Below are positions 14,370 through 61,764 of a stretch of DNA of 64,000 bases, in pieces. The stretch spans positions 57,429-121,428 of the IMG/VR virus record IMGVR_UViG_3300032282_006516; one strand, given 5' to 3'. The stretch is from a virus. A model generated the notes under the pieces. The model did not search any database. It was not told where the DNA came from and saw nothing but the letters and a program-made list of their open reading frames with translations. Each line of letters begins with the position of its first letter. Within the stretch, counting starts at the first letter, position 1. Both the position numbers and the translations under genes were made by a program.

Positions 14370-15059
14370 ATGGGAAGAGAACTACCCCCCGGCTACGTCA
14401 CGAGGAGCGAAGCGGCCCACGAACTCAGCATCAGTGTCAGCACCCTTGCTCGCCTGGTGCAACGCGGCCTTCTGTCGCCGAAGCGGCTGGCAGGAGTGCG
14501 TGTCCCGGTGTTCAAGCTGGAAGAGGTGCATGCCGTAAAGAATCGAGGAAACCGAAGTGACTGGAACGAAGTGCAGAGTGTAGCACTCGCGGCCCTGTCG
14601 ACCGCAAAACGCGCCGAAGCACGTCTCAACGAAGTCTACGAGCACCGTGGGCTAGACGTCGAGCCTCTTGCGCGTACTCCCGATGCGATTCGCGCCCTCT
14701 ACACCGAGGTGCAGCTCCCTCTGGACTCGAAAGACCTCTGGGCGCCTGGTTGGCTCCGTCGTTGGGGTGGGGTGCTTTTCGCCCTCGATGAGCACTACCT
14801 AGAACTGGTTGAGCACCTCACCAACAACTCCGAACCGTGGAAGCCGTACCTGGACTTTGCCGCGAGTGTCATGCGCCTCGTACACGCCGAACAAGATGAA
14901 GCGTTGTCGCGTGCCGCCGCACGTTTTCGCGCCGGGCAGCGGCACCTCTACCATGTTGGTTACATGTACTGCCGACGCACGCAGGGAGTGCGCGTAGCCG
15001 GTGTTGTATTTGATGGCCGAGCCGGCGCTGTGGATGAGCTACTGGCCATTTTGGATTAG
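14370..15059 (+). CDS. Helix-turn-helix DNA-binding protein (excisionase/MerR-like N-terminus, 229 aa)
   Basis: YVTRSEAAHELSISVSTLARLVQRGLL...FKLEEV is an HTH_17-type pattern; divergent from the head operon. Confidence 0.7.
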   Translation: MGRELPPGYVTRSEAAHELSISVSTLARLVQRGLLSPKRLAGVRVPVFKLEEVHAVKNRGNRSDWNEVQSVALAALSTAKRAEARLNEVYEHRGLDVEPLARTPDAIRALYTEVQLPLDSKDLWAPGWLRRWGGVLFALDEHYLELVEHLTNNSEPWKPYLDFAASVMRLVHAEQDEALSRAAARFRAGQRHLYHVGYMYCRRTQGVRVAGVVFDGRAGAVDELLAILD

Positions 15060-15060
15060 G

Positions 15061-15087
15061 CAATTTTTGTCACTATTCGGAGATAAG
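15061..15087 (+). promoter_or_regulatory. Candidate phage promoter CAA-N19-ATAAG (copy 1)
   Basis: CAA 15061-63, ATAAG 15083-87; AT-rich; directly upstream of a + strand gene. Confidence 0.55.
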
Positions 15088-15091
15088 AATA

Positions 15092-15685
15092 GTGATGCAC
15101 AACATCCAAAACCCCTCGACCTCCACCTCCACCCTCACGGCCGTGCAGTACGACGCGGCGCTCGCGCTCGCGCTCGCGCACGGCCACAACTGGGCCCGAT
15201 GGGCCCATCCCGGCGCGGCCGCGTACGACGAGGCGATGGCGCCCGCGCTGGCGCGCGTCCAGTCTGAGCGCGCCGCGGGCGCGGTAACGCTCGCCGCCAT
15301 TAACGCGTGCGCCTGGAAGGCGCAAGACCTCGGCCTGGCGCTGCCCGGCATCGACGGGCCCTCGTTCGAGGGCCCGGCCGTCGCGCACACGACGGGAACC
15401 GGGCGCCTATACTGGCGCGTAGAGCCCCCGGGCACCGTCCTGATCCACGTGTGGAGGCCGGGCGGTGAGACCCCCTGCCTCGCCGCCATGGTGGTCGAGG
15501 GGCGCATGTTCCGATTCACACTCGGAACGGGCGCCGAAGGGCGCCACGTCGTGGCGCTCGACGTCGCGCTCCGCGCGCTCGGGGTGGCCGAAAAGGTCCG
15601 GCGAGCGCTGTACATGCTTGTTCGGGATGGGGGCGCGGTGCTGGCGGAGGCGGACGCCTACGCGGAGAATGGGGGTGCTCAATGA
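15092..15685 (+). CDS. Hypothetical early protein (197 aa)
   Basis: ORF follows the promoter-like element; ATGA overlap with the next gene. Confidence 0.6.
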   Translation: MMHNIQNPSTSTSTLTAVQYDAALALALAHGHNWARWAHPGAAAYDEAMAPALARVQSERAAGAVTLAAINACAWKAQDLGLALPGIDGPSFEGPAVAHTTGTGRLYWRVEPPGTVLIHVWRPGGETPCLAAMVVEGRMFRFTLGTGAEGRHVVALDVALRALGVAEKVRRALYMLVRDGGAVLAEADAYAENGGAQ

Positions 15686-15894
15686 GCCCCCCCACCAGCA
15701 AGAAAAACACGGCGTTCATTTTGGTGCGGGGGGACGAGCGCGCCCTCGTCTCCCGGGATGAGAAGGGATGGACCGTCCTGGCCTGGGACGAGGACGGTCA
15801 GGGCCGACGCACCACGGTGCTCGGCCCGAACGACGAGGACGCGCGGGCTGCAATTTGGAAGCTGCTGGAGCAAGGCTTCCGAAACGGCCTGTGA
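15682..15894 (+). CDS. Hypothetical protein (70 aa)
   Basis: ATGA coupling; globular composition. Confidence 0.6.
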   Translation: MSPPTSKKNTAFILVRGDERALVSRDEKGWTVLAWDEDGQGRRTTVLGPNDEDARAAIWKLLEQGFRNGL

Positions 15895-15901
15895 CCGACG
15901 C

Positions 15902-15930
15902 GAGAAGGGGGAGTCATTCTCTCCCTTCTC
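15902..15930 (+). terminator. Stem-loop after 15682..15894
   Basis: GAGAAGGGGGAG-TCATT-CTCTCCCTTCTC inverted repeat. Confidence 0.45.
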
Positions 15931-15936
15931 GCTAGG

Positions 15937-15963
15937 CAACTTTTTTCATTATTCGTGGATAAG
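15937..15963 (+). promoter_or_regulatory. Candidate phage promoter CAA-N19-ATAAG (copy 2)
   Basis: 15933-15966 matches 15057-15090 at 29 of 34 positions, without gaps. Confidence 0.55.
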
Positions 15964-15979
15964 AATGATGGAGGTAATC

Positions 15980-23812: not shown

Positions 23813-26800
23813 TCAGTAGTGATGTCCCGGTACATTCTTCAGATGCTCGCGTCCAGGCTGAAGTGATTGCTTCTGCGTCAGGCCAAACTCAGCGCCGAAC
23901 ACAACACCCGGAATGGGGTGCGTACCGTGGATGTGGGAAACCTCGCCAAGAGCAGCCGCATCCGCCAGGGTGGTGCGCAGCCTTTGATGCTGCAACTTCG
24001 CCATCCAGTCCTCTTGCAGCTCTAGTGGCATTACCGAAATACCCTTAAGCACCGGCTTGTGCTCGATGGGCTGAAGCCCCTGCTTAACAAGGTTCTGATT
24101 CATCCGATTCACAACGGACAGCGGACGGTACTCACCGCGAAGAACGCTGTCGTGGTCACCGGGATGCACGATCTCGGTCAGGTTACCCATGGCCTTGATA
24201 ACCGTCTCCACGTGCCGGCGCTTGATGCCTTCCTTCTCATAAAGACCGTAAATCTCGTTCGCCAGATGGTGCTGAACCTTGTCCATCGAACCCGTCGCTT
24301 CGTACAGGCGGTGCGGGTTCAGGATTGTTCGATTCGGGTCCGACAGGTGGTCGCCGGCCTCGACCTTGGCGCCAACCACGGGCGGGTTCCAGTGCGTGTA
24401 CCCCGCCACGGCTTCGGCGTTCGGCAGATTCTGGTGAAGCGGAAGACCGCCAGCGTCCTTACCGACGTGGTGTTTGCGGTTTCCGATAAACACGTCCACG
24501 CCAGTCGTCGTCGGCTCAATCTTGGTGATGGTGCCGCTCGTCATCGCAAGAGACGACTCGTTCGGGAGCTTTTGTGGCAGCGACATGAGCTGCTCAAACC
24601 GTGCGAACGAGTTCAGAATCTTCGAGCCGTGCTGCTCTCCGACGCCGCCGGTGTGGAAGCTCTTGAGCGTGAGCTGGATGGCGCGTTCGCCAACGGCATG
24701 CGCCGAGTGGACACCGATGTTCGTACCGAGGGCATACGGGTGCCCGCCCGAGTCCAAGCCCGAGCACTTCTGGCAGATGCCCTTCTCGCTCTCGCACTTG
24801 AGCGGGGAGCGCACCACGATTTTCGCGTCCTTCTTTGCCGCCCGAATCTTTCCCACAACGTCGGGGGTAAGAAGTGTGCCGGCCGGAAGATGAAGGCTAC
24901 CGTGCGTGAAATCTTGCTGCAGATGCCGGTCATGCACGTCGCGCTCGTTGATGTGTAGCGCGATGCCCTTGTCCGTGCCGCAGTCGTGTTCGTTCACCGT
25001 CAAGTGCATCATGTTGTTCATGAGCAGCTTGGACATGTACCCCGGCTCCTGAACCTCCTGCACCTTCATGACCGAGCCGCGACGAGCGCCGTGCATCTGC
25101 GTCCAGTACCCGCCGACATCAAGCCCTTCGGCGTAGCTCTTGGTGACCGGAGTGGGAATCTTCCGGTCCATCGAGTCTTTGTAAATCATCGGAGCGAGAA
25201 CCATCTGCTTGTACTGGTCCCACCCCGGCTTCACACCGGCCTTGTACATGGTGAAGAGGTTCGTCGGATTCTTCTCCAGCTTGGCCTCGTGCAGCGCACG
25301 CATGTCGCGTTCCGCCTTCTCGTAAACCGTCACGGCCTGGTGATCCTTCTCCGACTGCGACAGCCCCGGTTTGGCGTAAATCGCCGTCACCTTTTTGTGT
25401 GCTTCGTCGAGAGCCTGTGCCCGCGCTTGGCGGTCAGGAGTAAAGTCCTCCAACGACAACGTGTGTGCACCGACCGGAACAAAGACACCCTTTGTTTCGG
25501 TTGCAACGGGTGTCTTACCCACGGTCTTGGTCAAATCAAACGGATGCCCTGCGCTCGCAGACCGAGGGAGAGAGACCGAGCCGAACGCCATGCCGTTGCC
25601 CAGGTCTTTCAGCTGATTGACCGCAGTTCCGTACTCCGGAGTGTGGTCCTTCGCGATACGCGTGAGCAGGTTGTTGAGACCTGACTTGTCGATATGATAG
25701 TCCATCTTGTGCAGCACATCCTGCTGCATCCCGCTCGGCACGGCGCTCGCCATGAGAATACGACCCGCTGTGGTCGGCTTTCCGTTGAGATGCACGATGT
25801 CGTTGACGTGCAGGGTGCCCTTGCGTACCGCCTCAACGGCTTCGCCAGGATGCTTGACGGACTTACCTGAATCCTTCCCAACCAACGACAACTTATAGAG
25901 CCCGAGTGCGCTTTCCAAGGTCGGCTGGTACATGACCTGCCCCGTCGCTTCGCTGAACAGGTTGTTCGACGGAAACATTTTGTGTGCCTCCGCCACAGCC
26001 TCACGCGTGATCGGGACGTACGCGCTCATCGTGTCGCCGTCGAAATCGGCGTTGAAGCCACCCGTGACGAGCGGGTGAATCTTGATGGCGTTGCCTTCGA
26101 CTGGCTTCGGCTTAAACGCCTGGACACTGTACTTGTGCAGCGCCGGGTCGCGCTTGAGCAGCACCGGGCGCTCTTCCATCACCTTATCGAGCGCACGCCA
26201 CACCGCAGGCGTTTGTTTTGAGATGAGCGCAGGACCCTGAAGCTCATTTTGAATAGCACCCATGTCCTTGAGCTTCCTCACGACAAACGGGCGGTACAGG
26301 TCAAGCGCCGCATTCTTGGGCAAGCCCACTTCGTCCAGACCCAATGCCGGCTCAGGGACAATCGTAGACCGCATGGTCATGTCCTGACGCCGGTTAACGA
26401 GTACATCCTGGAAGTAGCCGTTCTTCGGAGAACTACCGGCAACCTGATGCAGCAAGCCCTTGTGCTTGGCGTCGGCGTACGACGTTCCCAAGCCAATAAT
26501 CGCCTTCACACCGTCGTAGTAATCCTGGCGCAGAGATTTCTTGTTCTCGTCCAGGGTGTGCCGGGCCAGAGTCGGATTCTTCAGTTGATCGTTGACCTTG
26601 GCGAAGTCCGAATACAACTGGTTGATGTCCGCGAACTTCAACGCGCCGCTCGGCATCGTCGACACCGGGCGCATGACCGGCGGAATGACCGGGATATTGT
26701 GAAGGATGTAGGCTTCGCTCGGCTTCATGTCGAGATCCTTCAAGGCGCGAAGGTACTTCACCTTCTTGAGCGTCTTGTCGATCTCTTGCGTCTTCGCCGT

Positions 26801-29800
26801 TTGCAGCGCCTTCTCCGCTTTGGGCAGTTCCTTTGCTACGTCGATGCGGTCCAGGAGGAGCTTGATACCGGCACCACCCGTCACCCCGGCCTTAGTGTCC
26901 GTAAGACCGCCATTCGCGGCAACGCCCTTTTCGCCGTGAATGACCGCCGTGAAGTCTTTAGCGGACAGACCCGTTAGATGCCGAATCGGCGCCTCAAACA
27001 AAGGATTCGGAAGCGGCTCGGCAAGCCCAATCCGCGTCCACTGACGACCGCCGTGCCCACCGGTCAGGTGCTCATCGAACAAGCCGCCCGGCTTCGGCAT
27101 GGGGTCGCCGTTCTTGTCCGTCTTCGACAGCAGCAAATCGGCCGGATTAGGCAACTCTTTCTTTGCCAGCTGTTTGATGTGCGCGTCCGTCAGAGGAGAA
27201 AGAACAAGGTCATGCCCCTTCTTCTCGATGTTGATTCCAGACCCTTTCAGCATGTCGGTGAACTTCTGAAAGGCAAATGTCGGCTTGGGCGTCGGTAGAG
27301 GCCCACCCGTTTGAATCGCTGCCCAAATCTTGTCGTGGTCCGAAGGCCAGCGTTTTGCCGGATTCGTTTGTGCGTCCGGGCCTTCCGCCTTGTACGTCTG
27401 CATCTCGCGGATGTTCGCCGTCGCACCGTGCGCCAACAGCGCGTAGAGGCCGAGCGTACCCATCGACTGTCCGCCCGTTCCCGAGCCACTAGCCGGCTGA
27501 AGGTTCAGGTCGTACGTCTCGTGCGCCCCGCCCGGCAAGTTCATACCAGACCGCACCGAGAGCTTCTTCTCAACCTGATGCACGAGCTTGAGGTGGTGCT
27601 GCGGCCCCACCATGACCTTGCCGAGGGGCTGCTTCGTCACCGGGTCGAACAGTTCCTCTGTATCCGTCAAACCGTGCGCTTTGAGGTCCGCGCGCACCTT
27701 TCCCAACGCATCCGTGTTTGGCTCAAAGTTCTTGACGATGTAGGGCTTGCCCGTCTTCTCGACGATTTTCCCCGCAGCAGTTTCAAGCAACTGACCGACG
27801 TTCATACGGCCCGGAACACCCGAAGGGTTGAGCGCAACCTCGATGTGCTTACCGTCTTTCGTGTGCGGCATCTCCTGGTCCGGGAGGATCATCGTGACGA
27901 TGCCCTTGTTGCCGTACCGACCCGCCATCTTGTCGCCGACCTGCATCGGCTCGATGGTCCGTACGTGCACCGCGAGACCGTCCTTGCCCTTATGTACCCC
28001 GACAACCTCTCCGGGGAACTCACTGTCCCAACGAAGGCTCTTGTCCGTGTGCGCTCCGCTCATGCTGCGGCGGATGGCGGCCAAACCAGTGCGGTCTTTG
28101 ATGTTGTACGGCTTCATGGCCGCGATCAAAGGGTCACCCGGATGAACCGTCTGTCCGATTCTCACCACGCCCGAATCGTCGAGCTTTTCCAGCTGTTCCT
28201 TCTTGAATACTCCTGGATGTTCAAGATGAAACTTCTTCTTGTTTAGAACAAGGTCATCATCAAGCGGGATAGCGTTCTTCTGAAGGTGTGCGCTGGAGAG
28301 CTTCTGCGCCGCGCTTTCCGAGATGACGATTCCGTCCTCAAAGTTGTAGCCCTTGAACGGGATGTACGCCGTGCGGAGGTTGGTTCCGAGGGCCAATACG
28401 CCGTTCCGCGCGTAGTTCGTGTCCGCGATAACCTGGCCGCTTGTCACCTTGTCGCCAACCTTGACCAGAGGCGTCGAGTGCAACACGCCCTTGGCATCGT
28501 TGAGCGGGTAGTTGTTGTAGAGCTGCACTTCGTGGTGCTGGCCCTTGGCGTCTTGAAGAACGACCGCGTCTTTCTTCAGTTCAACCACTTTTCCGCTCAC
28601 GGGTGCTTGGTGCGATGCCTGCTTACCGAGCAGCGCCTCGAACGTAGGCGTGCTTTGCATCCCCGTGCCCACCTGCACCAGCGGGGCTTGCCGGTGTACG
28701 AGCGAAATCGCCTGTTCCATCTGGCGGCTCGCCATTGATGCACGACCGCCGCTCGTGTTCCCAAGGAACGGAACGAGGTTCGAGGTCATATTGAAAAGCT
28801 GCCAAGCGTGGGGCATCGCGTACTGCGCATCCGACACCTTGCCGTCACGAATCGCCGTACCGGCGCTCATGCGAACGGTGTCGTGTAGGGGCTTTGGCGT
28901 GCCGCCTTCCCAGCGAATCTGGTCCGGGAGAATGATGTTGGAAGTCGCGAACTTGGTTGGCGACACCATCTCCATCGCATTCGTCTTGAGGTTGTAAAGG
29001 CGAATCTTTGCCTCGTTTCCCTCTTTACGAACCCCAAGCGGCAGCCGCAGCGTCACGCCCGTCTTCGCACCCTCAGGCGTATTGATGGGGTCGAGATACC
29101 CGAGATGGCTCGGGTTGACGAACTTCGCCTCGTCTTCGATGCTGCGCTCGCTCTTAATGCCGCCCGTACCCATGATGGTCGTCTGCATCGCGGACGAGAC
29201 CATTTCGACGGGATTGATTTGCGTAGCAACGCGTGCCGCGCTGTTCTTATGAAACACGTCCCTGACGGGCGTGTTGAACATGTCGAACTTGATGATTTCG
29301 CGAATGTCTTTCGCTCCATCAATTTTACGTGCCGTCTTTGCTCGAACCGTTCGTCCGGCCTCGCGCAGCTTGTCGAAGGCGTAGTCACCCGTCGTACGCA
29401 AGTCCTTGAACACGAGCGAGTCCCGGTCATCTTCGGGATGACCGACGCTGACTTTCAAAAGTTTTTCTGTGGCGAGCTTCAACGTGTCTCCCGTCACATG
29501 AGAGAACGGCTTGCCGAGTGTAATCTCCGTCGCATCCGGACGAAGGTTTGACGCGCCCATGACCTGATGGAAATGCGCTGCCGCTTCTTCTTTGCTCGGT
29601 GCAGCGGTCTTCTTGGAGGTCTTGTAGAACGCCTCCAGGGCCGTGTTGACGCCACGTGCGTTCTTATTGGCGTCGAGGACTTCTTTTCCCCACGCCTTTT
29701 CCAGCTCACCGTCACTAACGCCGAGCGTCTTCAAAAACGGGTACAGCGGCAGCGACGCCTTGCTCGACCCATACTGCATCGAGAAGGTCTTTTTGGCCGG

Positions 29801-30247
29801 GTCGAACACCGTATCAAACGCACGCGCGCCCTTGCCCGTGACGTTGAAGTGGTTCTCCAGCTCACCGTTCGGCCGGCGCCGCGAATAGACACCGGACTTG
29901 AGCTGCCACTGGTTATCGACCTGATACTCCTGCCCATCAAGAATGTAACTGTACCGACTCGTCGTCAGCGGCAGCTCGGCGATGCGCACGCGGCGTTGGT
30001 CCACAGCCGCGCCGGTGTTTTTGTCCTTAAGCGTGAGGTGCGCGTAAACCGGCGCCGCCCATGAGTCACCGGCTACTTTTGCTGCATGTTGCCCGCGAAG
30101 GTCGTCAGGGTGCTTGAGCTTCGACACCTCTAGCTTGTCCAAATGAAGCGTCTGCGTTTTCCCTTCGAGCGGGAAATGCGCACGAATTCCCTCCAAGACA
30201 CGGTCCTGGAGATGCTGGGCGGCTTCGTTGGGGTCGAGGTAGGCCAT
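23813..30247 (-). CDS. rpoBC: DNA-directed RNA polymerase, beta and beta' subunits fused (2144 aa)
   Basis: beta motifs DPINTPEG, GYNFEDG, GDKMAGRYGNKG, LNPSGVPGRMNVGQ, followed in frame by beta' motifs GGLFDE, LKRDPALH, FNADFDGDTM (26033-26053) and QLTLKSFHTGG. Confidence 0.95.
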   Translation of the reverse strand: MAYLDPNEAAQHLQDRVLEGIRAHFPLEGKTQTLHLDKLEVSKLKHPDDLRGQHAAKVAGDSWAAPVYAHLTLKDKNTGAAVDQRRVRIAELPLTTSRYSYILDGQEYQVDNQWQLKSGVYSRRRPNGELENHFNVTGKGARAFDTVFDPAKKTFSMQYGSSKASLPLYPFLKTLGVSDGELEKAWGKEVLDANKNARGVNTALEAFYKTSKKTAAPSKEEAAAHFHQVMGASNLRPDATEITLGKPFSHVTGDTLKLATEKLLKVSVGHPEDDRDSLVFKDLRTTGDYAFDKLREAGRTVRAKTARKIDGAKDIREIIKFDMFNTPVRDVFHKNSAARVATQINPVEMVSSAMQTTIMGTGGIKSERSIEDEAKFVNPSHLGYLDPINTPEGAKTGVTLRLPLGVRKEGNEAKIRLYNLKTNAMEMVSPTKFATSNIILPDQIRWEGGTPKPLHDTVRMSAGTAIRDGKVSDAQYAMPHAWQLFNMTSNLVPFLGNTSGGRASMASRQMEQAISLVHRQAPLVQVGTGMQSTPTFEALLGKQASHQAPVSGKVVELKKDAVVLQDAKGQHHEVQLYNNYPLNDAKGVLHSTPLVKVGDKVTSGQVIADTNYARNGVLALGTNLRTAYIPFKGYNFEDGIVISESAAQKLSSAHLQKNAIPLDDDLVLNKKKFHLEHPGVFKKEQLEKLDDSGVVRIGQTVHPGDPLIAAMKPYNIKDRTGLAAIRRSMSGAHTDKSLRWDSEFPGEVVGVHKGKDGLAVHVRTIEPMQVGDKMAGRYGNKGIVTMILPDQEMPHTKDGKHIEVALNPSGVPGRMNVGQLLETAAGKIVEKTGKPYIVKNFEPNTDALGKVRADLKAHGLTDTEELFDPVTKQPLGKVMVGPQHHLKLVHQVEKKLSVRSGMNLPGGAHETYDLNLQPASGSGTGGQSMGTLGLYALLAHGATANIREMQTYKAEGPDAQTNPAKRWPSDHDKIWAAIQTGGPLPTPKPTFAFQKFTDMLKGSGINIEKKGHDLVLSPLTDAHIKQLAKKELPNPADLLLSKTDKNGDPMPKPGGLFDEHLTGGHGGRQWTRIGLAEPLPNPLFEAPIRHLTGLSAKDFTAVIHGEKGVAANGGLTDTKAGVTGGAGIKLLLDRIDVAKELPKAEKALQTAKTQEIDKTLKKVKYLRALKDLDMKPSEAYILHNIPVIPPVMRPVSTMPSGALKFADINQLYSDFAKVNDQLKNPTLARHTLDENKKSLRQDYYDGVKAIIGLGTSYADAKHKGLLHQVAGSSPKNGYFQDVLVNRRQDMTMRSTIVPEPALGLDEVGLPKNAALDLYRPFVVRKLKDMGAIQNELQGPALISKQTPAVWRALDKVMEERPVLLKRDPALHKYSVQAFKPKPVEGNAIKIHPLVTGGFNADFDGDTMSAYVPITREAVAEAHKMFPSNNLFSEATGQVMYQPTLESALGLYKLSLVGKDSGKSVKHPGEAVEAVRKGTLHVNDIVHLNGKPTTAGRILMASAVPSGMQQDVLHKMDYHIDKSGLNNLLTRIAKDHTPEYGTAVNQLKDLGNGMAFGSVSLPRSASAGHPFDLTKTVGKTPVATETKGVFVPVGAHTLSLEDFTPDRQARAQALDEAHKKVTAIYAKPGLSQSEKDHQAVTVYEKAERDMRALHEAKLEKNPTNLFTMYKAGVKPGWDQYKQMVLAPMIYKDSMDRKIPTPVTKSYAEGLDVGGYWTQMHGARRGSVMKVQEVQEPGYMSKLLMNNMMHLTVNEHDCGTDKGIALHINERDVHDRHLQQDFTHGSLHLPAGTLLTPDVVGKIRAAKKDAKIVVRSPLKCESEKGICQKCSGLDSGGHPYALGTNIGVHSAHAVGERAIQLTLKSFHTGGVGEQHGSKILNSFARFEQLMSLPQKLPNESSLAMTSGTITKIEPTTTGVDVFIGNRKHHVGKDAGGLPLHQNLPNAEAVAGYTHWNPPVVGAKVEAGDHLSDPNRTILNPHRLYEATGSMDKVQHHLANEIYGLYEKEGIKRRHVETVIKAMGNLTEIVHPGDHDSVLRGEYRPLSVVNRMNQNLVKQGLQPIEHKPVLKGISVMPLELQEDWMAKLQHQRLRTTLADAAALGEVSHIHGTHPIPGVVFGAEFGLTQKQSLQPGREHLKNVPGHHY

Positions 30248-30284
30248 GGGCGTTTGCAGCGTACCGCGCCCACTAGAACACGTG

Positions 30285-30311
30285 CAAGGTTCCGCCCAAG
30301 TCGGGGATAAG
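30285..30311 (+). promoter_or_regulatory. Candidate phage promoter CAA-N19-ATAAG (copy 3), divergent from the RNAP gene
   Basis: CAA 30285-87, ATAAG 30307-11. Confidence 0.5.
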
Positions 30312-30350
30312 AACTATGAGGCGCCGCATTTGCGCCTCAAGGAGACGACT

Positions 30351-31678: not shown

Positions 31679-31682
31679 AAAA

Positions 31683-34176: not shown

Positions 34177-34203
34177 CAATTAGCTCCTCATTCTAGGAAT
34201 AAG
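34177..34203 (+). promoter_or_regulatory. Candidate phage promoter CAA-N19-ATAAG (copy 4)
   Basis: CAA 34177-79, ATAAG 34199-203; lies between a terminator and the next + gene. Confidence 0.5.
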
Positions 34204-34221
34204 AAAGATGAGGAGGCCACT

Positions 34222-40174: not shown

Positions 40175-40197
40175 GTGGGCATCCTATCTCGTCTAGG

Positions 40198-40224
40198 AAA
40201 ATAGCGGTAGTCCGCGGGCATAAG
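40198..40224 (+). promoter_or_regulatory. Candidate phage promoter AAA-N19-ATAAG (copy 5), head of the replication region
   Basis: AAA 40198-200, ATAAG 40220-24; TAGG at the same offset as in copies 1-2. Confidence 0.5.
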
Positions 40225-40261
40225 GTAGGTGAGCGCTCTCCAACTAGAGCGCCGGAGCACT

Positions 40262-44947: not shown

Positions 44948-45000
44948 CACAACCCCTAGTGGTACGCCGCGCTGTGTACCGCTAGGGGTTGTGTGCTTTT
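44948..45000 (+). terminator. Long hairpin terminator
   Basis: CACAACCCCTAG-T-GGTAC...GTACC-G-CTAGGGGTTGTG then TGCTTTT. Confidence 0.65.
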
Positions 45001-45052: not shown

Positions 45053-45079
45053 CAACTTTAGCCCCCCGACCGGCATAAG
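45053..45079 (+). promoter_or_regulatory. Candidate phage promoter CAA-N19-ATAAG (copy 6)
   Basis: CAA 45053-55, ATAAG 45075-79; between a terminator and the helicase gene. Confidence 0.5.
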
Positions 45080-45112
45080 ACCGGTGCCTGCCGCTCTACT
45101 TCCGGAGGAAGA

Positions 45113-46555
45113 ATGTCGTATCAGCTCGCTCTATGCTCCCGTGTCGTTCGCACGGGAAACATCGCCCCCGTACTCAATTTCGGAATCACCATCGACGACT
45201 TTACGACCAACGAAGCCCGCGCCTTTTGGAACCTCATTCTCGCGTATTACACCCAGCACGAAAGCCGTGGGTCGATTGTGGCCCCCACGATGCTGCAGGG
45301 CTGGTTCAAAGACCTCATCCTGCACGACGACATCCCCTCGATGACCATCGAGGCCCTCTGCTACGAAGTCCGCCGCGAACGCGTCATCGTTGAAGGCAAT
45401 CGCGCGCTGGTGGCTTACTCGGAGGAAGTCTCCCTCCCCACAGCAAACCCAGCCGCGGCCCTATCGCGGCTGCAGAAGAGCGTCTCCGACCTCATCGCAC
45501 TCGGCACGGTCGCCAACTCTGACGTGCCCCTCTCGGCTGGACTCTCGAACATCATGCAGCAAGTTCAGCTGGCCAAGACCGGCGTGAACCGTGCTCGCAT
45601 GGACTGGCCGTGGGAGGCGCTGAACGACGCCACGTTCGGCCTGCAGCCGGACGACTACATCATCTTCTACGGGCGCCCGAAGTCCATGAAGACGTGGGTG
45701 CTCGTCTACCTAATCGCGTGGGCCTACGAGCACGAGAAGCGCATCCTGGTCTACACGAAGGAGATGACTCCCGACAACGTCTACCATCGGGTCATCTCCT
45801 GCATCGCGCGCCTGCCCTATGACGACGTTCGCGGAGCGCTTTCGGGTTACGCCCGAAACGACCCAGCACGCACGGCAAGCATCGAACACGCCGAGAAGGT
45901 GCTGTCCGAGCTGCACACATTCGTGAAGAGCGCGCCAGGTGAAGGCGAACGCTTGCAGGTGTTGAGCGGTCGTGACGTATCGGCGGGCGGCGACACCGTT
46001 TCGTGGCTGAAGAGCAAAGTCGAGCAGTACAAGCCGGACATTCTGTTCGTGGACGGGTTGTACCTCCTCAGCGACCAGCGCAAGGCCACCAGCGACCATG
46101 TCCGCGTGATGAACATCTCGCGTGACCTTCGGAACCTGGTTCTCCACACGGGTGTGCCGCTCGTCGCGACCATGCAGGCCAACCGCAAAGCTGCGGCTCA
46201 TGGCGACGCAAACCTCGACGAGATTGCTTACTCCGATGCAATCTCCCAGGACGCCACCATCGCGGCGCGTGTCATCAACGACAAGAACGCACCGACCATC
46301 AGCATCCTCATTGGCGGCAGCCGTGAGTTCAAACTCCACGGGTTCCGCATCAACGGCGTGCCGTCGACGGACTTTACCTTCCACTCCCAACTGACGGAAC
46401 AAGACGCGCTCAAGGCACGTGAAGGAGATCAAGAGCCGAGCGAAAAGAAACCGAAGAAAGACAGCATTCGACGCCCCGCCACCACTCCCGACCTGAGCGC
46501 TTCGGGCGTATCGGACGCGGAGCTGGGGCAGCGAATAGCTGCGGCGCGGCCGTGA
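45113..46555 (+). CDS. dnaB: DnaB-like replicative helicase (480 aa)
   Basis: GRPKSMKT Walker A variant, YTKEM, LFVDGLYL, MQANR, IAYSDAISQDA. Confidence 0.85.
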   Translation: MSYQLALCSRVVRTGNIAPVLNFGITIDDFTTNEARAFWNLILAYYTQHESRGSIVAPTMLQGWFKDLILHDDIPSMTIEALCYEVRRERVIVEGNRALVAYSEEVSLPTANPAAALSRLQKSVSDLIALGTVANSDVPLSAGLSNIMQQVQLAKTGVNRARMDWPWEALNDATFGLQPDDYIIFYGRPKSMKTWVLVYLIAWAYEHEKRILVYTKEMTPDNVYHRVISCIARLPYDDVRGALSGYARNDPARTASIEHAEKVLSELHTFVKSAPGEGERLQVLSGRDVSAGGDTVSWLKSKVEQYKPDILFVDGLYLLSDQRKATSDHVRVMNISRDLRNLVLHTGVPLVATMQANRKAAAHGDANLDEIAYSDAISQDATIAARVINDKNAPTISILIGGSREFKLHGFRINGVPSTDFTFHSQLTEQDALKAREGDQEPSEKKPKKDSIRRPATTPDLSASGVSDAELGQRIAAARP

Positions 46556-47550
46556 CCGACGATATTCTCACCCTCGCCCAGAAGTATCTGGAGCGGGTAA
46601 AGCGGTCGGGGGCGGACGACATCATGTCCGTCTGTCCCTTTCACCGAAAGTCAGACGGAACAACAGAGCGAACGCCGTCGTTTGCGATGAGCATTCGCAG
46701 CGGGCTCTGGTACTGCCACTCGTGCCACGCACGCGGCAATCTGCACTCGTTCCTGAAAAACGTCGGGGTGCCGCACGCCGAAATCGAGCTGCGTTACAAG
46801 CCGCTACTCGACGACGCAACGAGGCACGTTCCGGCGAAGACAAACCCACTCGTTCCCCTCGAAGCCGTCAAAGAACCTCTTCCAGAGAGTCTTTTGGCAC
46901 GGTTTGAGACTTGCCCGACGATGCTGCTGGAAGAGGGATTTCCCGAAGACCTCTTACGGCGCTTTGACGTTGGGTTCGACCCAATCCACAACCGGATCAC
47001 CTTCCCGCTGCGTAACGCACGCGGGCAGCTCATCGGAATCAGCGGAAGAGCGGTCGACGGACAACACCCTCGGTACAAGGTGTACGACTGGGAGTACCGC
47101 GACTTTGAGCTTCCCGAAAGAAAGACCGAGAAGCGGGCGATTGTGTGGAATCTGCACAACGTCCTCATCGAAGGTCTCTTCACAAAACAACAACCTGACC
47201 GGTTCGTCGTTGTCGTAGAGGGCTTCAAGGCCGTCATGCGCGTTGCCCAGGCGGGAATAAGCAACGTGGTAGGACTGCTTGGTTCCTTCCTTTCCGAAGA
47301 GCAACAAGGGGTACTCTGCCGACTCGGCTGCCCCATCCTGCTCATGCTGGACAGCAACGACGCCGGACAAGCCGGTCAGTTTGACGCCGGGGTCCGTCTC
47401 AACCGTGACGTCCCGAATCTTTACGTCGTCCACTACAACGCACCGCAGCCCAGCGACCTACAGCCTGCCGAAATACACACAGCACTGCTACAAGCACAGC
47501 GGTTTCAGACGTGGGCGGTCAACGTCCCACTCCAACAGCTACGCCACTAA
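46552..47550 (+). CDS. dnaG: DNA primase (CHC2 zinc finger + Toprim, 332 aa)
   Basis: CPFH...WYCHSC, RITFPL, ISGRA, VVEG, LDSNDAG. Confidence 0.9.
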   Translation: MTDDILTLAQKYLERVKRSGADDIMSVCPFHRKSDGTTERTPSFAMSIRSGLWYCHSCHARGNLHSFLKNVGVPHAEIELRYKPLLDDATRHVPAKTNPLVPLEAVKEPLPESLLARFETCPTMLLEEGFPEDLLRRFDVGFDPIHNRITFPLRNARGQLIGISGRAVDGQHPRYKVYDWEYRDFELPERKTEKRAIVWNLHNVLIEGLFTKQQPDRFVVVVEGFKAVMRVAQAGISNVVGLLGSFLSEEQQGVLCRLGCPILLMLDSNDAGQAGQFDAGVRLNRDVPNLYVVHYNAPQPSDLQPAEIHTALLQAQRFQTWAVNVPLQQLRH

Positions 47551-48779: not shown

Positions 48780-50843
48780 ATGGGCTGGAATATCCGACTT
48801 CCGGATGCCGAGTGGTACGACCTCGGTGATCCGCGCCTTCCTGCACTCATCGACGAAGTCTGCGACCAAGACGTCGTCGCTATCGACACCGAGACCACAG
48901 GTCTCAAAATCTGGTTCGACAAGGTGCTGTTCTGGTCTCTTGCTTGGGGACCGCACCGCCGTGTGTGCATGCCCGCGCGCACCCTACCATTGTTCCAAGA
49001 CGCGTTCGCCGATGCGGGGAAGCGTTGGGTATTCGCGAACGCGAAGTACGACCTGCACATGCTCGCCAACTCTGGCGTGAACATCACGGGCGACGCGGTG
49101 GACACCGCCGTGATGCACGCGTTGCTCTACGAAGAAGAGAGCCACGCTCTCAAGGACATGGCGAAGCAGGTTCTCGGCTGGCGTTGGACCGACTTCTTCG
49201 ACACGTTCCAGGCGCAGAACGTCGACGACCTGTCGAAGTCGCCGAAGCGATTGCCAAGCGGGCTGTTCGTTCAGCCCACGCGCAAGGAAACCATCGAGGA
49301 GATGCTTCTGCGCTGCGCGCACGAAGACCTCCCACGCCTCGTCGACTACGCCTCCAACGACGCCTACGGCACGCTCCGGCTGTACGAGAAGCTACGGCAA
49401 GAGCTGCAAGACACGGCGATTTACTCGCTGTACCCGGACTGGCTTCCCGACATGGAAGCTCTGTTCTTCAAAACCGAGGTTCCGTTCACCCGCGTCCTCT
49501 GGGAGTGCGAGCGCAACGGCGTCTTCGTGAACCAAGAGTACCTACAACAACTGCGCGGTCCGATGTGGGCCGAGCACGAACAACTCAGCCGCGAAGCAGC
49601 TCGTCTCTGGCATGCCGCCGGATTCACCGAGGCGTTCAACCCGAACTCCACCGACCAGCTTCGTCGCTACTTCTTCGAGCATCTGCACCTCAAGCCGCTG
49701 ATGTTCACCAAGGGTGGCAAGAGCGGTGTTCGGACTCCCTCCGTGGATAAGGGATTCCTGGAGCGCTACGAGCACGAAAGCCCCATGGCGGCGCACCTGC
49801 TTCGTGACCGAAAGCTGACCAAGCTCATCGGCACGTACATCGACGGCGCCAACGAACACATCGACCCGAACGGGCGAATCCACACGCGGTTCAACCAAGA
49901 CGTAGCGCGGACGGGCCGCCTCTCATCAAGCAGCCCCAACTTGCAGAACATCCCCACGCCTGAGAAGGATAAGTTTCAACTGCGCGGTGCGTTCCAAGCG
50001 ACACCCAACTCGGGCAACACGCTGATCGTCGGCGACTACTCGCAGCTCGAAATGCGGTTGCTGGCGTGCGCTACCGTCACGCAGGCCAATCCCCGAGGCG
50101 CCGAGGAGATGATTCAAATCTTCCTCGACGGCAAGGACATCCACATGGGCAACGCCGCGATGGTCTTCGGCCCCATGGTCAAGCGCCAATATGGATGGGA
50201 CCTGACCTACGACTTCATCAAGGAGGCCAAGAAGGTCGACGGCAAGGTGAAGTCGGGCGAACTTCCTGAGAGCGCGCTCACCGACCAGCACCGCCTCGCT
50301 CTCGAAAAGCGAGTCCACATCAAGTCCGTAGGCTTCGGCCTGAACTACGGCATGAAGGAAAACAAGCTCGCTCGGCAGCTCGGCATCACGAAGGAAGAAG
50401 CGGCCAGCATCATCGAGGCGTACCTCGGAACCTACCCGGCGGTGAACGACTTCTACGCGGCGGCTATCGAAGAGACTCAAACTACTGGGTTTTCCTTCAC
50501 CCTGCTCGGACGCCGCCGGTTTCACCCCGGCATCGCAAGCCCGAACGCCCTCGACCGCTGGAGCGAGGAGCGCAAGGCCGTGAACAATCAGATCCAGGGA
50601 ACGGCTGCCGACGCTGTTCGTCTGGCGATGATTCGCATCGCGCAAGCGCGCCTCGACCGCAAGTACGGCTGCAAGATGCTGTTGCAGGTACACGACGAGT
50701 TGATGTTCGAGTGCCCGCAGGAAACTGCGGAGGAAGCTCGGGCTGAGATTCAACGCATCATGGAGCACCCGTTCCCGACCGACCTCGCCGTTCCGCTCGA
50801 TGTAAGCATCGGCATCGGCCCGTCCTGGAACAAAGCAAAATGA
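48780..50843 (+). CDS. polA: Family A DNA polymerase (3'-5' exonuclease + polymerase, no 5' nuclease; 687 aa)
   Basis: IDTET, ANAKYD, TGRLSSSSPNLQNIP, DYSQLEMR, KSVGFGLNYG, NNQIQGTAAD, QVHDEL. Confidence 0.95.
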   Translation: MGWNIRLPDAEWYDLGDPRLPALIDEVCDQDVVAIDTETTGLKIWFDKVLFWSLAWGPHRRVCMPARTLPLFQDAFADAGKRWVFANAKYDLHMLANSGVNITGDAVDTAVMHALLYEEESHALKDMAKQVLGWRWTDFFDTFQAQNVDDLSKSPKRLPSGLFVQPTRKETIEEMLLRCAHEDLPRLVDYASNDAYGTLRLYEKLRQELQDTAIYSLYPDWLPDMEALFFKTEVPFTRVLWECERNGVFVNQEYLQQLRGPMWAEHEQLSREAARLWHAAGFTEAFNPNSTDQLRRYFFEHLHLKPLMFTKGGKSGVRTPSVDKGFLERYEHESPMAAHLLRDRKLTKLIGTYIDGANEHIDPNGRIHTRFNQDVARTGRLSSSSPNLQNIPTPEKDKFQLRGAFQATPNSGNTLIVGDYSQLEMRLLACATVTQANPRGAEEMIQIFLDGKDIHMGNAAMVFGPMVKRQYGWDLTYDFIKEAKKVDGKVKSGELPESALTDQHRLALEKRVHIKSVGFGLNYGMKENKLARQLGITKEEAASIIEAYLGTYPAVNDFYAAAIEETQTTGFSFTLLGRRRFHPGIASPNALDRWSEERKAVNNQIQGTAADAVRLAMIRIAQARLDRKYGCKMLLQVHDELMFECPQETAEEARAEIQRIMEHPFPTDLAVPLDVSIGIGPSWNKAK

Positions 50844-51359: not shown

Positions 51360-52649
51360 ATGCCGCGCACTCCGGTCAACGAACTCAACAAGAAGCTCGC
51401 CCAACTCGAAGCCAAGCTCAATCGCAGCCCTGAAGCCAAGGGCGCGAAGGTGATGACGGACATCGACCAATCGCCAAACACTTACTTCCTGCGTCGCCCC
51501 TCCGGCATCATGCCGCTCGACCTCGACACGGGTGGCGGCTTGCCCGCCGGAGGGCTGACGTACCTGTCCGGACCGGACGGCGCGGGTAAGACGTTCCTGC
51601 TCTACAAGTACATCGCGATGAACCAGAAGCTCTACGGAGAGCGTTCTGCCGTCGCGCTCGCCGTCAGCGAGGCGGCTCCCGACCACTTCTTCATGCGGAA
51701 GTGCGGGGTGCAGATTGCGATCCCGGAAACGATGCTGGAGGAGCGCATCAACGAGCGGAAGGAGCGTGGGCTCCCGAGCTTCACCAAGGAACAGCTTCGG
51801 GAGTTCCGGTCGAAGACGGTCGGCACCGTCAAGCTCCTGCGTGGTGCTCATGGCGAGGAGCTGCTCGGAGCCGTGCTGGAGTGCTTCGACGCCGGCATCT
51901 TCGACATCATCGCTCTCGACTCGGTGTCGGCTGTGCTGCCTGAAGCCGATGCGGGCAAGGACCTGGATGAGCCCGGAAAGCGCGCCGCCGCGGCAGGCAT
52001 GCTGACGAAGTTCTTCCAGCACTACCTCAACGGGACGACCGGCTACTACGGCCTGAACCCGACGACGGTCATCTTCACGTCGCAGGTCCGGTCGAACAGC
52101 AAGAAGGCCGAAGCCCCGGCCCACATCCAGAAGTACCTGCCCGACTACGCTCCGCAAGGCGCGTGGGCGGCGAAGCACGGCAAGCTCATCGACATCCTCG
52201 TCAAAGGCGGCGCCAAGGAGAAGGAAGAGGTCAAGGTTGCCCCCAGCAGCCTTGGAGAGCTTGCGGCGCAGCAACGCAACAAGCGCGTTCAGGTCGGCAA
52301 GACCGTTCAGTACGAAGTGCTGAAGGGTAAGGCGGGCGTTCACGAGGGCATCACGGGGGAGTTCGAGTTCCACTTCCCCGCCAGCGCCACCGAGATGAAC
52401 GACCCCTCGAAGCTGCTGACGGAGGACCAGCGCATGGTGCTCGTCTCCGCTATGCAGCGCGGCATCCTCTTCGAGCGCGAGGGCTTGGTGACGGTCTACG
52501 ACCTCGCTACGCAGCAGCCTTACCCGAACCTGAAGGACATCGCCGGTATCAACCGGCTGGTCGACATGATGCGCGCCGACTTCGAGTTGGAACTCATGCT
52601 CCGCCGCGCGGTACTCAGCGCCGCGGCAATCGAATGCGCGTATCGCTGA
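51360..52649 (+). CDS. recA: RecA/UvsX-like recombinase (429 aa)
   Basis: LDLDTGGGLPAGG, SGPDGAGKT, IIALDSV, FTSQVR, VLKGK. Confidence 0.85.
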   Translation: MPRTPVNELNKKLAQLEAKLNRSPEAKGAKVMTDIDQSPNTYFLRRPSGIMPLDLDTGGGLPAGGLTYLSGPDGAGKTFLLYKYIAMNQKLYGERSAVALAVSEAAPDHFFMRKCGVQIAIPETMLEERINERKERGLPSFTKEQLREFRSKTVGTVKLLRGAHGEELLGAVLECFDAGIFDIIALDSVSAVLPEADAGKDLDEPGKRAAAAGMLTKFFQHYLNGTTGYYGLNPTTVIFTSQVRSNSKKAEAPAHIQKYLPDYAPQGAWAAKHGKLIDILVKGGAKEKEEVKVAPSSLGELAAQQRNKRVQVGKTVQYEVLKGKAGVHEGITGEFEFHFPASATEMNDPSKLLTEDQRMVLVSAMQRGILFEREGLVTVYDLATQQPYPNLKDIAGINRLVDMMRADFELELMLRRAVLSAAAIECAYR

Positions 52650-59814: not shown

Positions 59815-59815
59815 G

Positions 59816-60079
59816 TTACGACCTCGTGACCGACGTCAAGTTGGAACCGCTGTACGTCAAGCTAAGCGTCGCCACCACCGTGCCTCCGGAACCACCCTGC
59901 TTGTAGACGACCGTCGTCAGGTCCGAGCCCGTGTAGTCGAGGCCGATGTAGTCGTACGACTCGGGAACAAGCTGAGATACATTTCGGACAAGCCACGGAG
60001 TGCCGCCCGGAGTTCCCTGCGCCGCGGTGACGGAGTCGGTCGCCTCATTCAAGGTCCGACCTAACGTAATCGTTGCCAT
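59816..60079 (-). CDS. Hypothetical small virion protein (87 aa)
   Basis: beta-hairpin-like YTGSDLTTVVY / YSGSNLTSVT repeat. Confidence 0.6.
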   Translation of the reverse strand: MATITLGRTLNEATDSVTAAQGTPGGTPWLVRNVSQLVPESYDYIGLDYTGSDLTTVVYKQGGSGGTVVATLSLTYSGSNLTSVTRS

Positions 60080-60090
60080 CCGTACGCCCT

Positions 60091-60549
60091 TTACTTGGCT
60101 GCGTTGATGAGGGCCGCCGTTCCGGCAGCGGCGGCGACGGTCACCAATACACCAATCGCCACACCGAATCCGGTGGTTTTGTACCAGGGCGGGCCTTCGG
60201 CGAGTTCTTTCTGCGCCGCGTCGAGCTTCTTCTGGAGGTCGCCCGTAACCTGCGTGTACTGCGCCCTCTCCAGCTCCAGCTGCTTCTTAGCGTAGTCCAG
60301 CTCCAGCCCGTCGTACTTCTTCTGGAACTCAACGTCCGCCTGCAGTCGGAACTTGTACTGCTGGAGGTAGTTCGCCCAACGAAGGGCCGTGGGCTGGTCA
60401 AAGAGCTGCCCCGTGAATGGCGCCGGGTCGCCCTTCTTCACCACCTCGATACGGTCTTCTCCTGACGGAACAGGAACAACCGGAACGGTGTCGCCCCAAG
60501 CGCGAGAAGGCAGAAGTGTGAGGAGCACGATGAGGGCAACGGTACGCAT
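60091..60549 (-). CDS. Secreted/membrane coiled-coil protein, spanin-like candidate (152 aa)
   Basis: N-terminal signal-like segment, central coiled coil, C-terminal TM helix. Confidence 0.55.
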   Translation of the reverse strand: MRTVALIVLLTLLPSRAWGDTVPVVPVPSGEDRIEVVKKGDPAPFTGQLFDQPTALRWANYLQQYKFRLQADVEFQKKYDGLELDYAKKQLELERAQYTQVTGDLQKKLDAAQKELAEGPPWYKTTGFGVAIGVLVTVAAAAGTAALINAAK

Positions 60550-60571
60550 GCGCGCAGTATGCCCGCGGTTC

Positions 60572-60605
60572 AGAGGCTAAGAAAAGGGATGCGTGCGCAT
60601 CCCTT
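60572..60605 (-). terminator. Intrinsic terminator with TTAGCCTCT tail (minus strand)
   Basis: Minus strand AAGGGATGC-GCAC-GCATCCCTT-TTC-TTAGCCTCT; ends the thyX unit. Confidence 0.65.
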
Positions 60606-60631
60606 CTCTGATTCTCCGACGAACTCGCGAA

Positions 60632-60907
60632 CTACTTCCCGGCCGCTTCGGCCGCGTGAAGTTCCGACTCTAGGCGGTCGAGCGTGTCCGCCAACTTCGC
60701 CCGGCTCTCACCTTCCAGCTGTCCCACCGCAAGCGCGATGATACGCGTCGCAGCGCGAAACCCTTCGGCGTAACGACGCCGACCGGCGGTCTCCACCAGA
60801 GCCAAAACCTTCTGCATCACGGGGTCTGTCGCGTCCATCGTTACTCCTTGTGCATCCAGGGCTGCGGAAAAAGGTTGGGCCAACGACGGACACACAGCCG
60901 CCGCCAA
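60632..60907 (-). CDS. Hypothetical helical protein (probably starts MDATDP near 60838)
   Basis: AAGGAG RBS before MDATD; downstream of thyX. Confidence 0.55.
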   Translation of the reverse strand: MAAAVCPSLAQPFSAALDAQGVTMDATDPVMQKVLALVETAGRRRYAEGFRAATRIIALAVGQLEGESRAKLADTLDRLESELHAAEAAGK

Positions 60908-61704
60908 GCCCGCGCGAATCGTCGAATCTCCAGGTCGGCCACCTCGTTCTCACGCTCGCGAACGAACTTGGCGATGGCCGCAGGGTTGGTCGTCCAGAGG
61001 AACGAGGTCTCGGCCTGATGCGGAAGAAAGCTCGAAGCGGCTTCGTAGATGCGCTTCCGCTCCATGCCCTTCGGGGCGCTGCCGTTTTGCTCCGTGTAGA
61101 AGCGCGTGTCGTCGAGCACCGCGTTGAGGTACGCCTCGTAACTCGTCTCCATCGCCTGCCGGAACCGCGCCTGCAGCAGCGGGCTGTCGGCGTAGCGCAG
61201 GGGCTCGACGAAGTAGCCGTAGTGATGCGTGAACCGCGTCGACTCCTGACTGGGGTTGCCCTCTTCGTCGCGGTCGGCTCCGACGTAGTTTCGGATGATT
61301 TCGTGGCTCACACGCCGTGACACGCCCGCGAAGAAGAAGGTCATCTTCGCGTGGTAGAGAATGCTGGCGTGGGCGACGTCGCCTTCTTGCGTGTGGCGGA
61401 TGTACTCCGCGTTGCTCTTCCGCCCCGCCTTCACGCCGAAGCTGTCGTAGCACTTGCGCCCAGCCAGCTCGACGAGCAGCTCGTTGGCCGTCAACTCGCG
61501 GTTCGTGTCCGCATCGACGCCCTCGTGTGGAAAGAGTGCCAGCCACCGAGGCGGGGCGAGCGGGTTCTCATCAAAAGGCGGTAGGCACTCAGGGCGATGC
61601 GACTGCACCCACTCCATCATGTCCTCGACGCCCAACGTCGAGAGCTGCATCTCGGCGATGGGAATGATGGTGGGATCGCCCCGAAGAATCGTGACGTTAC
61701 TCAT
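60841..61704 (-). CDS. thyX: FAD-dependent thymidylate synthase ThyX (287 aa)
   Basis: ELAGRKCY, GVSRRVSHEIIR, SQESTRF, EIRRFA. Confidence 0.85.
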   Translation of the reverse strand: MSNVTILRGDPTIIPIAEMQLSTLGVEDMMEWVQSHRPECLPPFDENPLAPPRWLALFPHEGVDADTNRELTANELLVELAGRKCYDSFGVKAGRKSNAEYIRHTQEGDVAHASILYHAKMTFFFAGVSRRVSHEIIRNYVGADRDEEGNPSQESTRFTHHYGYFVEPLRYADSPLLQARFRQAMETSYEAYLNAVLDDTRFYTEQNGSAPKGMERKRIYEAASSFLPHQAETSFLWTTNPAAIAKFVRERENEVADLEIRRFARAWRRLCVRRWPNLFPQPWMHKE

Positions 61705-61737
61705 GGAACCTCCGTGCGCGACAATCCGCGCATAGGC

Positions 61738-61764
61738 CTTATCCCGCGTCGAGCGCTATTTTTA
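61738..61764 (-). promoter_or_regulatory. Candidate phage promoter TAA-N19-ATAAG (copy 7) upstream of thyX
   Basis: Minus strand TAAAAATAGCGCTCGACGCGGGATAAG; shares AAAATAGCG and CGCGGG with copy 5. Confidence 0.5.

Follow-up and report, generated by a model that had tools for sequence, protein, structure and literature searches.

In the phages T4 and SPO1, a phage member of the sigma factor family (gp55 in T4, gp28 and gp33-34 in SPO1) defines a private class of promoters; these sigma factors are early products that direct the host core RNA polymerase (RNAP) to genes of later stages. In N4, a virion RNAP transcribes the early genes and host RNAP the late genes. The virion and non-virion multisubunit RNAPs of the jumbo phages phiKZ and AR9 are composed of split beta/beta' pieces without a sigma70-family factor, and the other type of phage enzyme is single-subunit and needs hairpin promoters. 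In this study, we analyzed a 64,000-nucleotide stretch of viral DNA (hereafter the window), comprising bases 57429–121428 of the 121,428-bp IMG/VR virus record IMGVR_UViG_3300032282_006516, with a focus on a repeated element, AA-N19-ATAAG, that lies upstream of seven non-structural transcription units. The record has 61% G+C and is estimated to be ~65% complete; coordinates are those of the window unless marked "genome". Position, orientation, statistics and the conservation of both of its spacings in related phages strongly support the proposal, made in a preliminary description of the window, that the element is a promoter of non-structural transcription units, and we describe it here as a three-box promoter. 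In addition, our analyses identified a phage-encoded sigma factor as its candidate reader, likely acting on the single-chain beta-beta' RNAP that is encoded in the window.

The closest cultured relatives of this phage are the Salmonella phage Arash and the Vibrio phages D69, D148 and D181, whose RNAPs are 32–34% identical to its own (34% for Arash gp206) and of which Arash encodes a sigma factor, gp10, that is 37% identical to the one described here. These relationships are detectable at the protein level only; a megablast of the RNAP gene against cultured phages returned nothing. In Arash (OQ632216.1), RNAP beta, RNAP beta' and gp10, which is annotated as a sigma factor, are all listed in the virion proteome (PMC10585845). 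Our literature searches found no published promoter or transcription studies on Arash, D69, D148 or D181, and nothing relevant on this promoter or this group of polymerases.

Sequence and position of the promoter motif

All seven AA-N19-ATAAG sites of the preliminary description, with their identical spacing, were confirmed when their coordinates were reread. Together with a third box that follows ATAAG, they are:

15061..15094, + strand: promoter 1, with CAA at 15061-63, N19, ATAAG at 15083-87, N5 and TG at 15093-94
15937..15970, + strand: promoter 2, CAA-N19-ATAAG-N5-TG
30285..30318, + strand: promoter 3, divergent from the RNAP gene, with GCAA at 30284-87
34177..34210, + strand: promoter 4, CAA-N19-ATAAG-N5-TG
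40198..40231, + strand: promoter 5, which has AAA in place of CAA and points away from the divergent portal-side operon
45053..45086, + strand: promoter 6, heading the replication operon
61731..61764, - strand: promoter 7, with TAA instead of CAA

The seven AA-N19-ATAAG matches compare with an expectation of 1.26 ± 1.10, and none of 100 shuffles reached seven. The motif as first described was correct as far as it went, but the N5-TG box had been missed, as had seven copies outside the window (genome 3651-, 23116, 27830, 28037, 28351, 29284 and 29845), and the extended word is (G)CAA-N16-GG-N-ATAAG-N5-TG. A scan of both strands of the 121-kb genome for the strict pattern AA-N19-ATAAG-N5-TG identified 15 matches, compared to 0.11 expected from 300 dinucleotide shuffles, whose maximum was 2. 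When the distances were varied, CAA-Nk-ATAAG had its sole peak at k=19 (11 copies; five at k=20 are CAAA sites) and ATAAG-Nk-TG peaked only at k=5, with 18 copies. Of the 15 strict sites, 14 are sense-oriented, lie between genes or at the extreme edge of a predicted gene, and are followed 4–45 nucleotides downstream by a start codon on the same strand. The motif does not occur with equal frequency inside genes or in antisense. The fifteenth site, at genome 13220(-), is inside a gene, has a site-matrix score of <8 bits and is probably a chance match. Five of the copies outside the window are clustered at genome 27.8–29.9 kb before tiny open reading frames (ORFs), an arrangement that looks usual for an early region. 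Weaker variants with ACAAG and otherwise the same boxes and spacing occur in intergenic DNA at genome 30557 (+) and 47584 (+) and inside an ORF at window 30810 (+); these were not counted.

We numbered the motif from the invariant G of TG as +1, which places the T at -1, nATAAG at -12 to -7, GG at -14/-13 and CAA at -33 to -31. Its three fixed boxes are then (T-N2-)GCAA at -34 to -31, G-14 G-13 N A-11 T A A G-7, and T-1 G+1. Among the 14 sites, TG is exactly 5 nucleotides after ATAAG in every one, G is present at -14 in 12 and at -13 in 13 (the two positions preceding the variable base), and AA is preceded by C in 11 and that position in turn by G in 10. In this genome -15 is C or G and -12 is A, G or C. 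Position -7 is G in 14/14 sites here and in every strict site of the relatives, and C in some lineages.

Several traits of sigma70-family promoters are present in this motif, as nATAAG with its A-11 was found in 14/14 sites, an upstream box precedes the -10 box by a constant number of nucleotides, and the invariant T-G 6–7 nucleotides downstream of the -10 box fits a pyrimidine at -1 and a purine at +1. The T expected at -7 was not found. The preliminary description had stated that the motif does not match TTGACA/TATAAT of sigma70. G does replace T at -7, but nATAAG is in the -10 register, A-11 is kept, G-14 corresponds to the G of extended -10 promoters, and both the AA box upstream and its spacing are as in sigma-28 promoters. 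Therefore, the motif is not alien to promoters of the sigma70 type.

The resemblance to promoters of sigma-28 (FliA/WhiG, group 3) is one of register, with AA at -32/-31, ATAA at -11 to -8 and an extended -10 G near -14 (PMC12784957). In the sigma-28 promoter resolved by cryo-electron microscopy, these boxes are -36 TCTAAAG -30 and -15 GCCGATAA -8, with A-11 flipped (PMC12784957), and the register of the class pattern TAAA-N15-GCCGATAA (TAAA near -34 to -31, ATAA at -11 to -8) is the one found here. However, sigma-28 promoters have C-13 G-12 (GCCG before ATAA), whereas the phage motif has G-13 in 13/14 sites and a free -12; their upstream box is TAAA rather than GCAA, and it is the phage motif that fixes G-7 and TG at -1/+1. 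Extended -10 promoters of primary sigma factors (TGnTATAAT) share A-11, T-10, A-9, A-8 and G-14 with the motif, and the boxes of D69 and Arash, which read TGnTATAAG or GGTATAAG, are closer still, with a full TG at -15/-14 in D69. They differ in having T at -7, where the phage motif has G (C in some lineages), and in this genome -15 and -12 are not T and an upstream box stands at fixed spacing. Two other kinds of promoter were considered and rejected. A consensus scan for sigma70 promoters in the window from 14 to 54 kb found fewer sites than shuffled sequence. A hairpin promoter of the N4 kind was rejected because a best-stem test of the spacers gave z = 2.6 in this genome and only 0.4 in 64 sites of relatives; several spacers in this genome look palindromic.

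The genes that follow the seven promoters are non-structural genes and small genes without an assigned role. Promoter 1 precedes a 197-residue gene (15092/15095-15685; no Pfam or PHROG match), whose ATG directly follows the TG (TGATG), and then a 70-residue gene. At promoter 2 the Shine-Dalgarno sequence GGAGG begins at the predicted +1, and the ATG of a gene of ~54 residues is at 15980. Promoter 3 precedes a 33-residue ORF followed by a MoxR-type AAA ATPase (AAA_5; 31287-32837) and a VWA/DUF2201 protein (32834-34141), and promoter 4 a lone 149-residue gene of unassigned role (34222-34671) with GAGGAGG beginning at +1/+2. The unit of promoter 5 includes a SNF2/ResIII helicase (40888-42612) and a UDG-family protein (43015-43881) and ends at the terminator at 44948-44993. 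Promoter 6 heads the replication operon, with genes for a DnaB-like helicase (45113-46555), a primase (46552-47550), a family A DNA polymerase (48780-50843) and a RecA-like protein (51360-52649). Promoter 7 precedes thyX (60841-61704; Pfam Thy1, E 9e-26).

The replication operon and the SNF2 helicase/UDG unit are on the strand opposite the virion-side genes, which in the window include the terminase, the major head protein and the portal (the orthologue of Arash gp204). Most virion-side proteins had no match in PHROGs and were assigned by orthology to Arash instead. The earlier statement that no site precedes structural operons is true for this genome, since the capsid, terminase, portal and RNAP genes are without the motif, and neither the RNAP gene nor the sigma gene has an ATAAG promoter. 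The statement that sites often follow directly after a terminator was correct for one canonical terminator, at 44948-44993; near 15.9 kb and 34.15 kb only hairpins without a T-tract were found. That terminator (+ strand) is very strong, with a 20-bp stem and a T-rich tail, and lies ~60 nucleotides before promoter 6.

Several features near the promoters are recorded here in their own right. The 229-residue ORF at 14370-15059 (+) has a weak N-terminal helix-turn-helix (MerR/HTH_17/AbiEi-like, E ~1e-3) and is a candidate regulator; it stops 2 nucleotides before promoter 1, and the 42-bp gap between it and the divergent capsid-side operon contains no ATAAG promoter. The MoxR-type AAA ATPase and the DUF2201 metallopeptidase-like/VWA protein (31287-34141, +) form a conserved pair in the unit of promoter 3. 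RNAs predicted to begin at the conserved G would open with a stem-loop from nucleotide 1 in three units, at 30318-30338 (+), 40231-40253 (+) and 61716-61731 (-), with energies of -13.5, -11.6 and -10.8 kcal/mol (z = -3.2, -2.0 and -1.2), respectively. These predicted stem-loops lend soft support to the proposed start site, and could be 5' stabilizers with the Shine-Dalgarno sequence placed after them.

The RNAP gene has a host-like promoter of its own at 30258-30287 (-), with TTGCAC at 30282-87, N18, and TACGCT preceded by GG (30258-65), situated 10 nucleotides before an ATG that lacks a Shine-Dalgarno sequence. Many relatives keep the box pair TTGC-N18-(G)GTAnnCT ahead of the RNAP gene, and its TTGC and the GCAA of promoter 3 are reverse complements. 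TTGC-N18-GTAnnnT was also tested as a promoter of late genes in general and rejected: with two matches versus 12 in the control, it is not, in that form, a motif of the whole genome. No Shine-Dalgarno sequence precedes the first genes of virion-side operons either. Their ATG is preceded by a TAnnnT box (TAGGAT, GGTAAAGT, GGTATGAT), at a distance of 6 nucleotides at the operon heads 40174 (box at 40181-40186, -) and 27291 and 21 nucleotides at the head 23054. The heads with a 6-nucleotide gap look like sources of leaderless mRNAs from host-type -10 boxes.

Conservation in related phages

A search of IMG/VR with the RNAP protein identified 75 related loci (30–73% identity, 1.67 Mb in total), in which the strict pattern had 75 matches, compared to two in a reversed control, with 70 of the 74 listed sites on the strand opposite the RNAP gene. 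In these relatives both spacings are conserved: GCAA-Nk-ATAAG has its sole peak at k=19 (45 versus two in the control) and G..ATAAG-Nk-TG its sole peak at k=5 (85 versus 17). The counterpart of promoter 3 could be followed by its position, as the strict motif was found in divergent orientation in 28 of 52 distinct regions preceding the RNAP gene, and in 33 of 52 when the -10 box is relaxed, versus none in controls. The 19-nucleotide spacers of this divergent promoter are only 35% identical in pairwise comparisons while the boxes are kept, and so it is the boxes and their distances that are under selection and not the intervening sequence. Across 29 large records, there were 193 matches compared to 15 in the control.

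The motif follows the phage lineage. In five distant records, whose RNAP is ≤34% and whose sigma is ≤26% identical, the motif was at control level, and it is missing where the phage sigma is ≤26% identical. Among its variants, record G005 (locus L019) has only GGnAAAAG, at three sites, and no ATAAG, and records G009 (L036) and G021 (L069) use both ATAAG and ATAAC; these three records constitute a natural test set for covariation of sigma and promoter. A G or C at -7 is invariant across hundreds of sites, and the motif is used in RNAP-bearing phages that range from 44 to 66% G+C and whose hosts include Salmonella and Vibrio.

The cultured relatives Arash and D69 share the -10/start core on the strand of their non-structural genes. 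Strict matches numbered seven in Arash and 11 in D69, on one strand only in each phage, with none in the control. Between 16 and 66 kb of Arash, G.TATAAG does not occur on the plus strand, where the virion genes are located, and occurs 13 times on the minus strand, the strand of the small genes and of those for tRNAs and nucleotide metabolism.

The phage sigma factor, the RNAP and the proposed reading of the promoter

The preliminary description named the phage fused RNAP or a redirected host RNAP as the enzyme that might read the motif as an early or middle promoter; a phage-encoded sigma factor, the likely specificity factor, had not been considered. The two genes concerned are:

23813-30247, - strand: single-chain beta-beta' RNA polymerase, 2144 residues (Pfam Rpb2_6 4.6e-61, Rpb1_2 1.4e-26, Rpb1_5 7.6e-18)
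genome 7940-8737, - strand, outside the window: phage sigma, 265 residues (match to Arash gp10, E 2.6e-25)

The sigma gene was found only as the orthologue of Arash gp10. Its product has a Pfam Sigma70_r3 match of 50 bits (cut-off 25.3) and a weak region 4; it matches SigA, HrdB and RpoD structures in the PDB over regions 2–3, as well as FliA, and its region 2.2 resembles bacterial ones. The NCBIfam SigB/F/G model aligns to its full length (residues 43-261) and the FliA/WhiG models in part, the latter with 33–37 bits against cut-offs of 190–326, which places the protein outside FliA/WhiG. An AlphaFold model built from an 18-sequence alignment (predicted local distance difference test score, pLDDT, 84) has three helical domains and a disordered linker at 165-190, and its top Foldseek matches are all full-length sigma factors (SigB, SigD, SigA and sigma-S). 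Taken together, the family, structure and model comparisons indicate that the phage protein is a divergent three-domain member of the sigma70 family that is nearest to group 3. Such a three-domain protein suits a promoter composed of an upstream box, a -10 box and an extended -10 base.

The sigma and the RNAP occur together. The sigma was identified in 25 of 29 RNAP-bearing records, the four without it being incomplete, and in 16 of 17 near-complete genomes found from the RNAP side. From the sigma side, for which an alignment of nine sequences was used, the RNAP was identified in 14 of 17 further records and in 7/7 of those at least 90% complete. The sigma gene is located among orthologues of Arash virion proteins (gp6, gp8 and the helicase gp217). 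This genome and five complete relatives were searched for a second sigma like Arash gp196, and none was found; gp196 itself is larger (345 residues; OQ632216.1 120656-121693, locus L087:2489-3526) and is absent from the part of the virion proteome examined (PMC10585845). No alpha subunit (RpoA-type, PF01000) was detected in this genome or in four complete relatives, and the viral enzyme thus appears to be composed of a beta-beta' chain and sigma only.

Based on these results, we consider it reasonably probable that the phage sigma recognizes these promoters, most likely in combination with the single-chain beta-beta' RNAP of the phage. Domain 4 of the sigma would read GCAA, domain 3 G-14 and domain 2 ATAAG, whose A-11 would flip out as it does with other sigma factors, and a changed -7 pocket would accept G or C and not T, separating the phage promoters from host sigma70 promoters. 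The first transcribed base would be the conserved G or the one after it. The products would be near-leaderless mRNAs (TG-ATG), as predicted for the four units of the genome in which the ATG directly follows TG, or mRNAs that have a Shine-Dalgarno sequence or a 5' stem-loop at their very start. The promoter serves small genes of unassigned role, replication genes and thyX, with the RNAP, sigma and virion genes outside the class. The orthologous RNAP and sigma are abundant in Arash virions, and for this reason the enzyme is probably carried in the particle, delivered with the DNA, and fires the ATAAG promoters first, at the start of infection. The fuller form of this proposal is more tentative, namely that the particle delivers a minimal holoenzyme (fused beta-beta' and sigma, without alpha) which begins infection without host RNAP, with G-7 keeping viral and host promoters mutually invisible.

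Several observations weigh against a reading of the promoters by the phage sigma and RNAP, or against parts of it. For the sigma70-family factors known so far, T at -7 ranks among the two -10 bases that matter most, and here that position is G. Six-frame Pfam scans of this genome for Sigma70_r2 and Sigma70_r4 found nothing, the conserved aromatic residues of region 2.3 are absent from the phage sigma in the PDB alignment, and its scores against the NCBIfam subfamily models all fall far short of the cut-offs. Arash has not kept the upstream AA/GCAA box. The host-like promoter of the RNAP gene also fits a T7-like order, in which host RNAP makes the phage enzyme first and delivery in the virion would be unnecessary. 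The co-occurrence of sigma and RNAP is equally compatible with a sigma that works on the phage core or on the host core, and the genome is only about 65% complete.

The main alternative, which we regard as rather unlikely, is that the phage sigma reads the ATAAG promoters on host core RNAP, the phage beta-beta' having another task (other genes, priming). Redirection of the host core by a phage sigma has precedents in T4 gp55 and SPO1 gp28. It would suit an ordinary three-domain sigma70-family protein with a region 2.2 like the bacterial ones, and a promoter whose geometry is exactly that of bacterial holoenzymes. However, a sigma without the fused RNAP was never found in near-complete genomes (7/7 from the sigma side; 16/17 from the RNAP side), and the sigma gene stands with the virion genes and has no early promoter ahead of it, the reverse of what is seen for known sigma factors that redirect the host core. 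In addition, one motif is used across phages of 44 to 66% G+C with hosts as unlike as Salmonella and Vibrio, and both proteins are packaged together in Arash virions (PMC10585845).

A reading by host RNAP with a host sigma (primary or sigma-28-like), in which the phage machinery has no part, is improbable. ATAAG does share 4/5 bases with the ATAAT end of TATAAT, the D69 box TGnTATAAG is near an extended -10, and the register equals that of sigma-28, but the invariant G or C at -7 in hundreds of sites and the lack of the C-13 G-12 of sigma-28 argue against it. Furthermore, the motif tracks the phage lineage, as its AAAAG and ATAAC variants illustrate, and relatives whose phage sigma is very divergent do not have it, even though their hosts surely have primary sigma factors. 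Least probable of all, to the point that we give it little weight, is a regulator binding site or RNA-level signal (processing, translation) near start codons, as suggested by the proximity of the sites to start codons and by a TG that is in several cases part of a possible GTG/ATG, since the motif consists of two strand-specific boxes 19 nucleotides apart with a free spacer, at the heads of units and not before every gene, the Shine-Dalgarno sequence is separate and downstream, no Rfam family was found in the window, and spacer hairpins are not above chance in relatives.

Comparison with known transcription systems

We consider the promoter to be a previously undescribed variant of the sigma-type promoter that appears to be tied to a viral holoenzyme. 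More than 90 IMG/VR records of 44 to 66% G+C carry the system, with some members infecting Salmonella and Vibrio, and in annotating these genomes the motif serves as a marker of where non-structural transcription units begin. If the phage sigma and RNAP do read the promoter, widespread phages of ~120–220 kb would run self-contained transcription from bacterial parts, using a single-chain beta-beta' without alpha, a private sigma and a promoter that is unlike that of the host mainly at -7. Such a system would represent a natural experiment on the specificity of the -7 pocket, the minimal size of a sigma-dependent RNAP and the separation of viral and host genes by one base, as well as an orthogonal set of polymerase, sigma and promoter for engineering. 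The cultured relatives Arash and D69 make each of these steps testable. Arash differs from the phage studied here in that its RNAP gene is split by inserted genes, it has the second sigma gp196 and its upstream box is not kept.

The overall arrangement proposed here resembles the scheme of the jumbo-phage RNAPs (phiKZ, AR9) and of N4, with a host-independent phage RNAP that is probably delivered by the particle, private promoters, and late or virion genes in another class (in part, PMC7598289). It differs from phiKZ, AR9 and N4 in its components, as this phage has one fused chain of bacterial type, a true sigma and a sigma-type promoter without a hairpin. As in T4 and SPO1, a phage sigma would define a private promoter class, but here the sigma gene is among virion genes, the promoters head non-structural genes and the sigma travels with a viral RNAP. 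Potentially, if the holoenzyme is indeed delivered with the DNA, these phages would represent a third independent way for a phage to possess its own transcription, besides the single-subunit enzymes of the T7/N4 type and the split enzymes of the phiKZ type.

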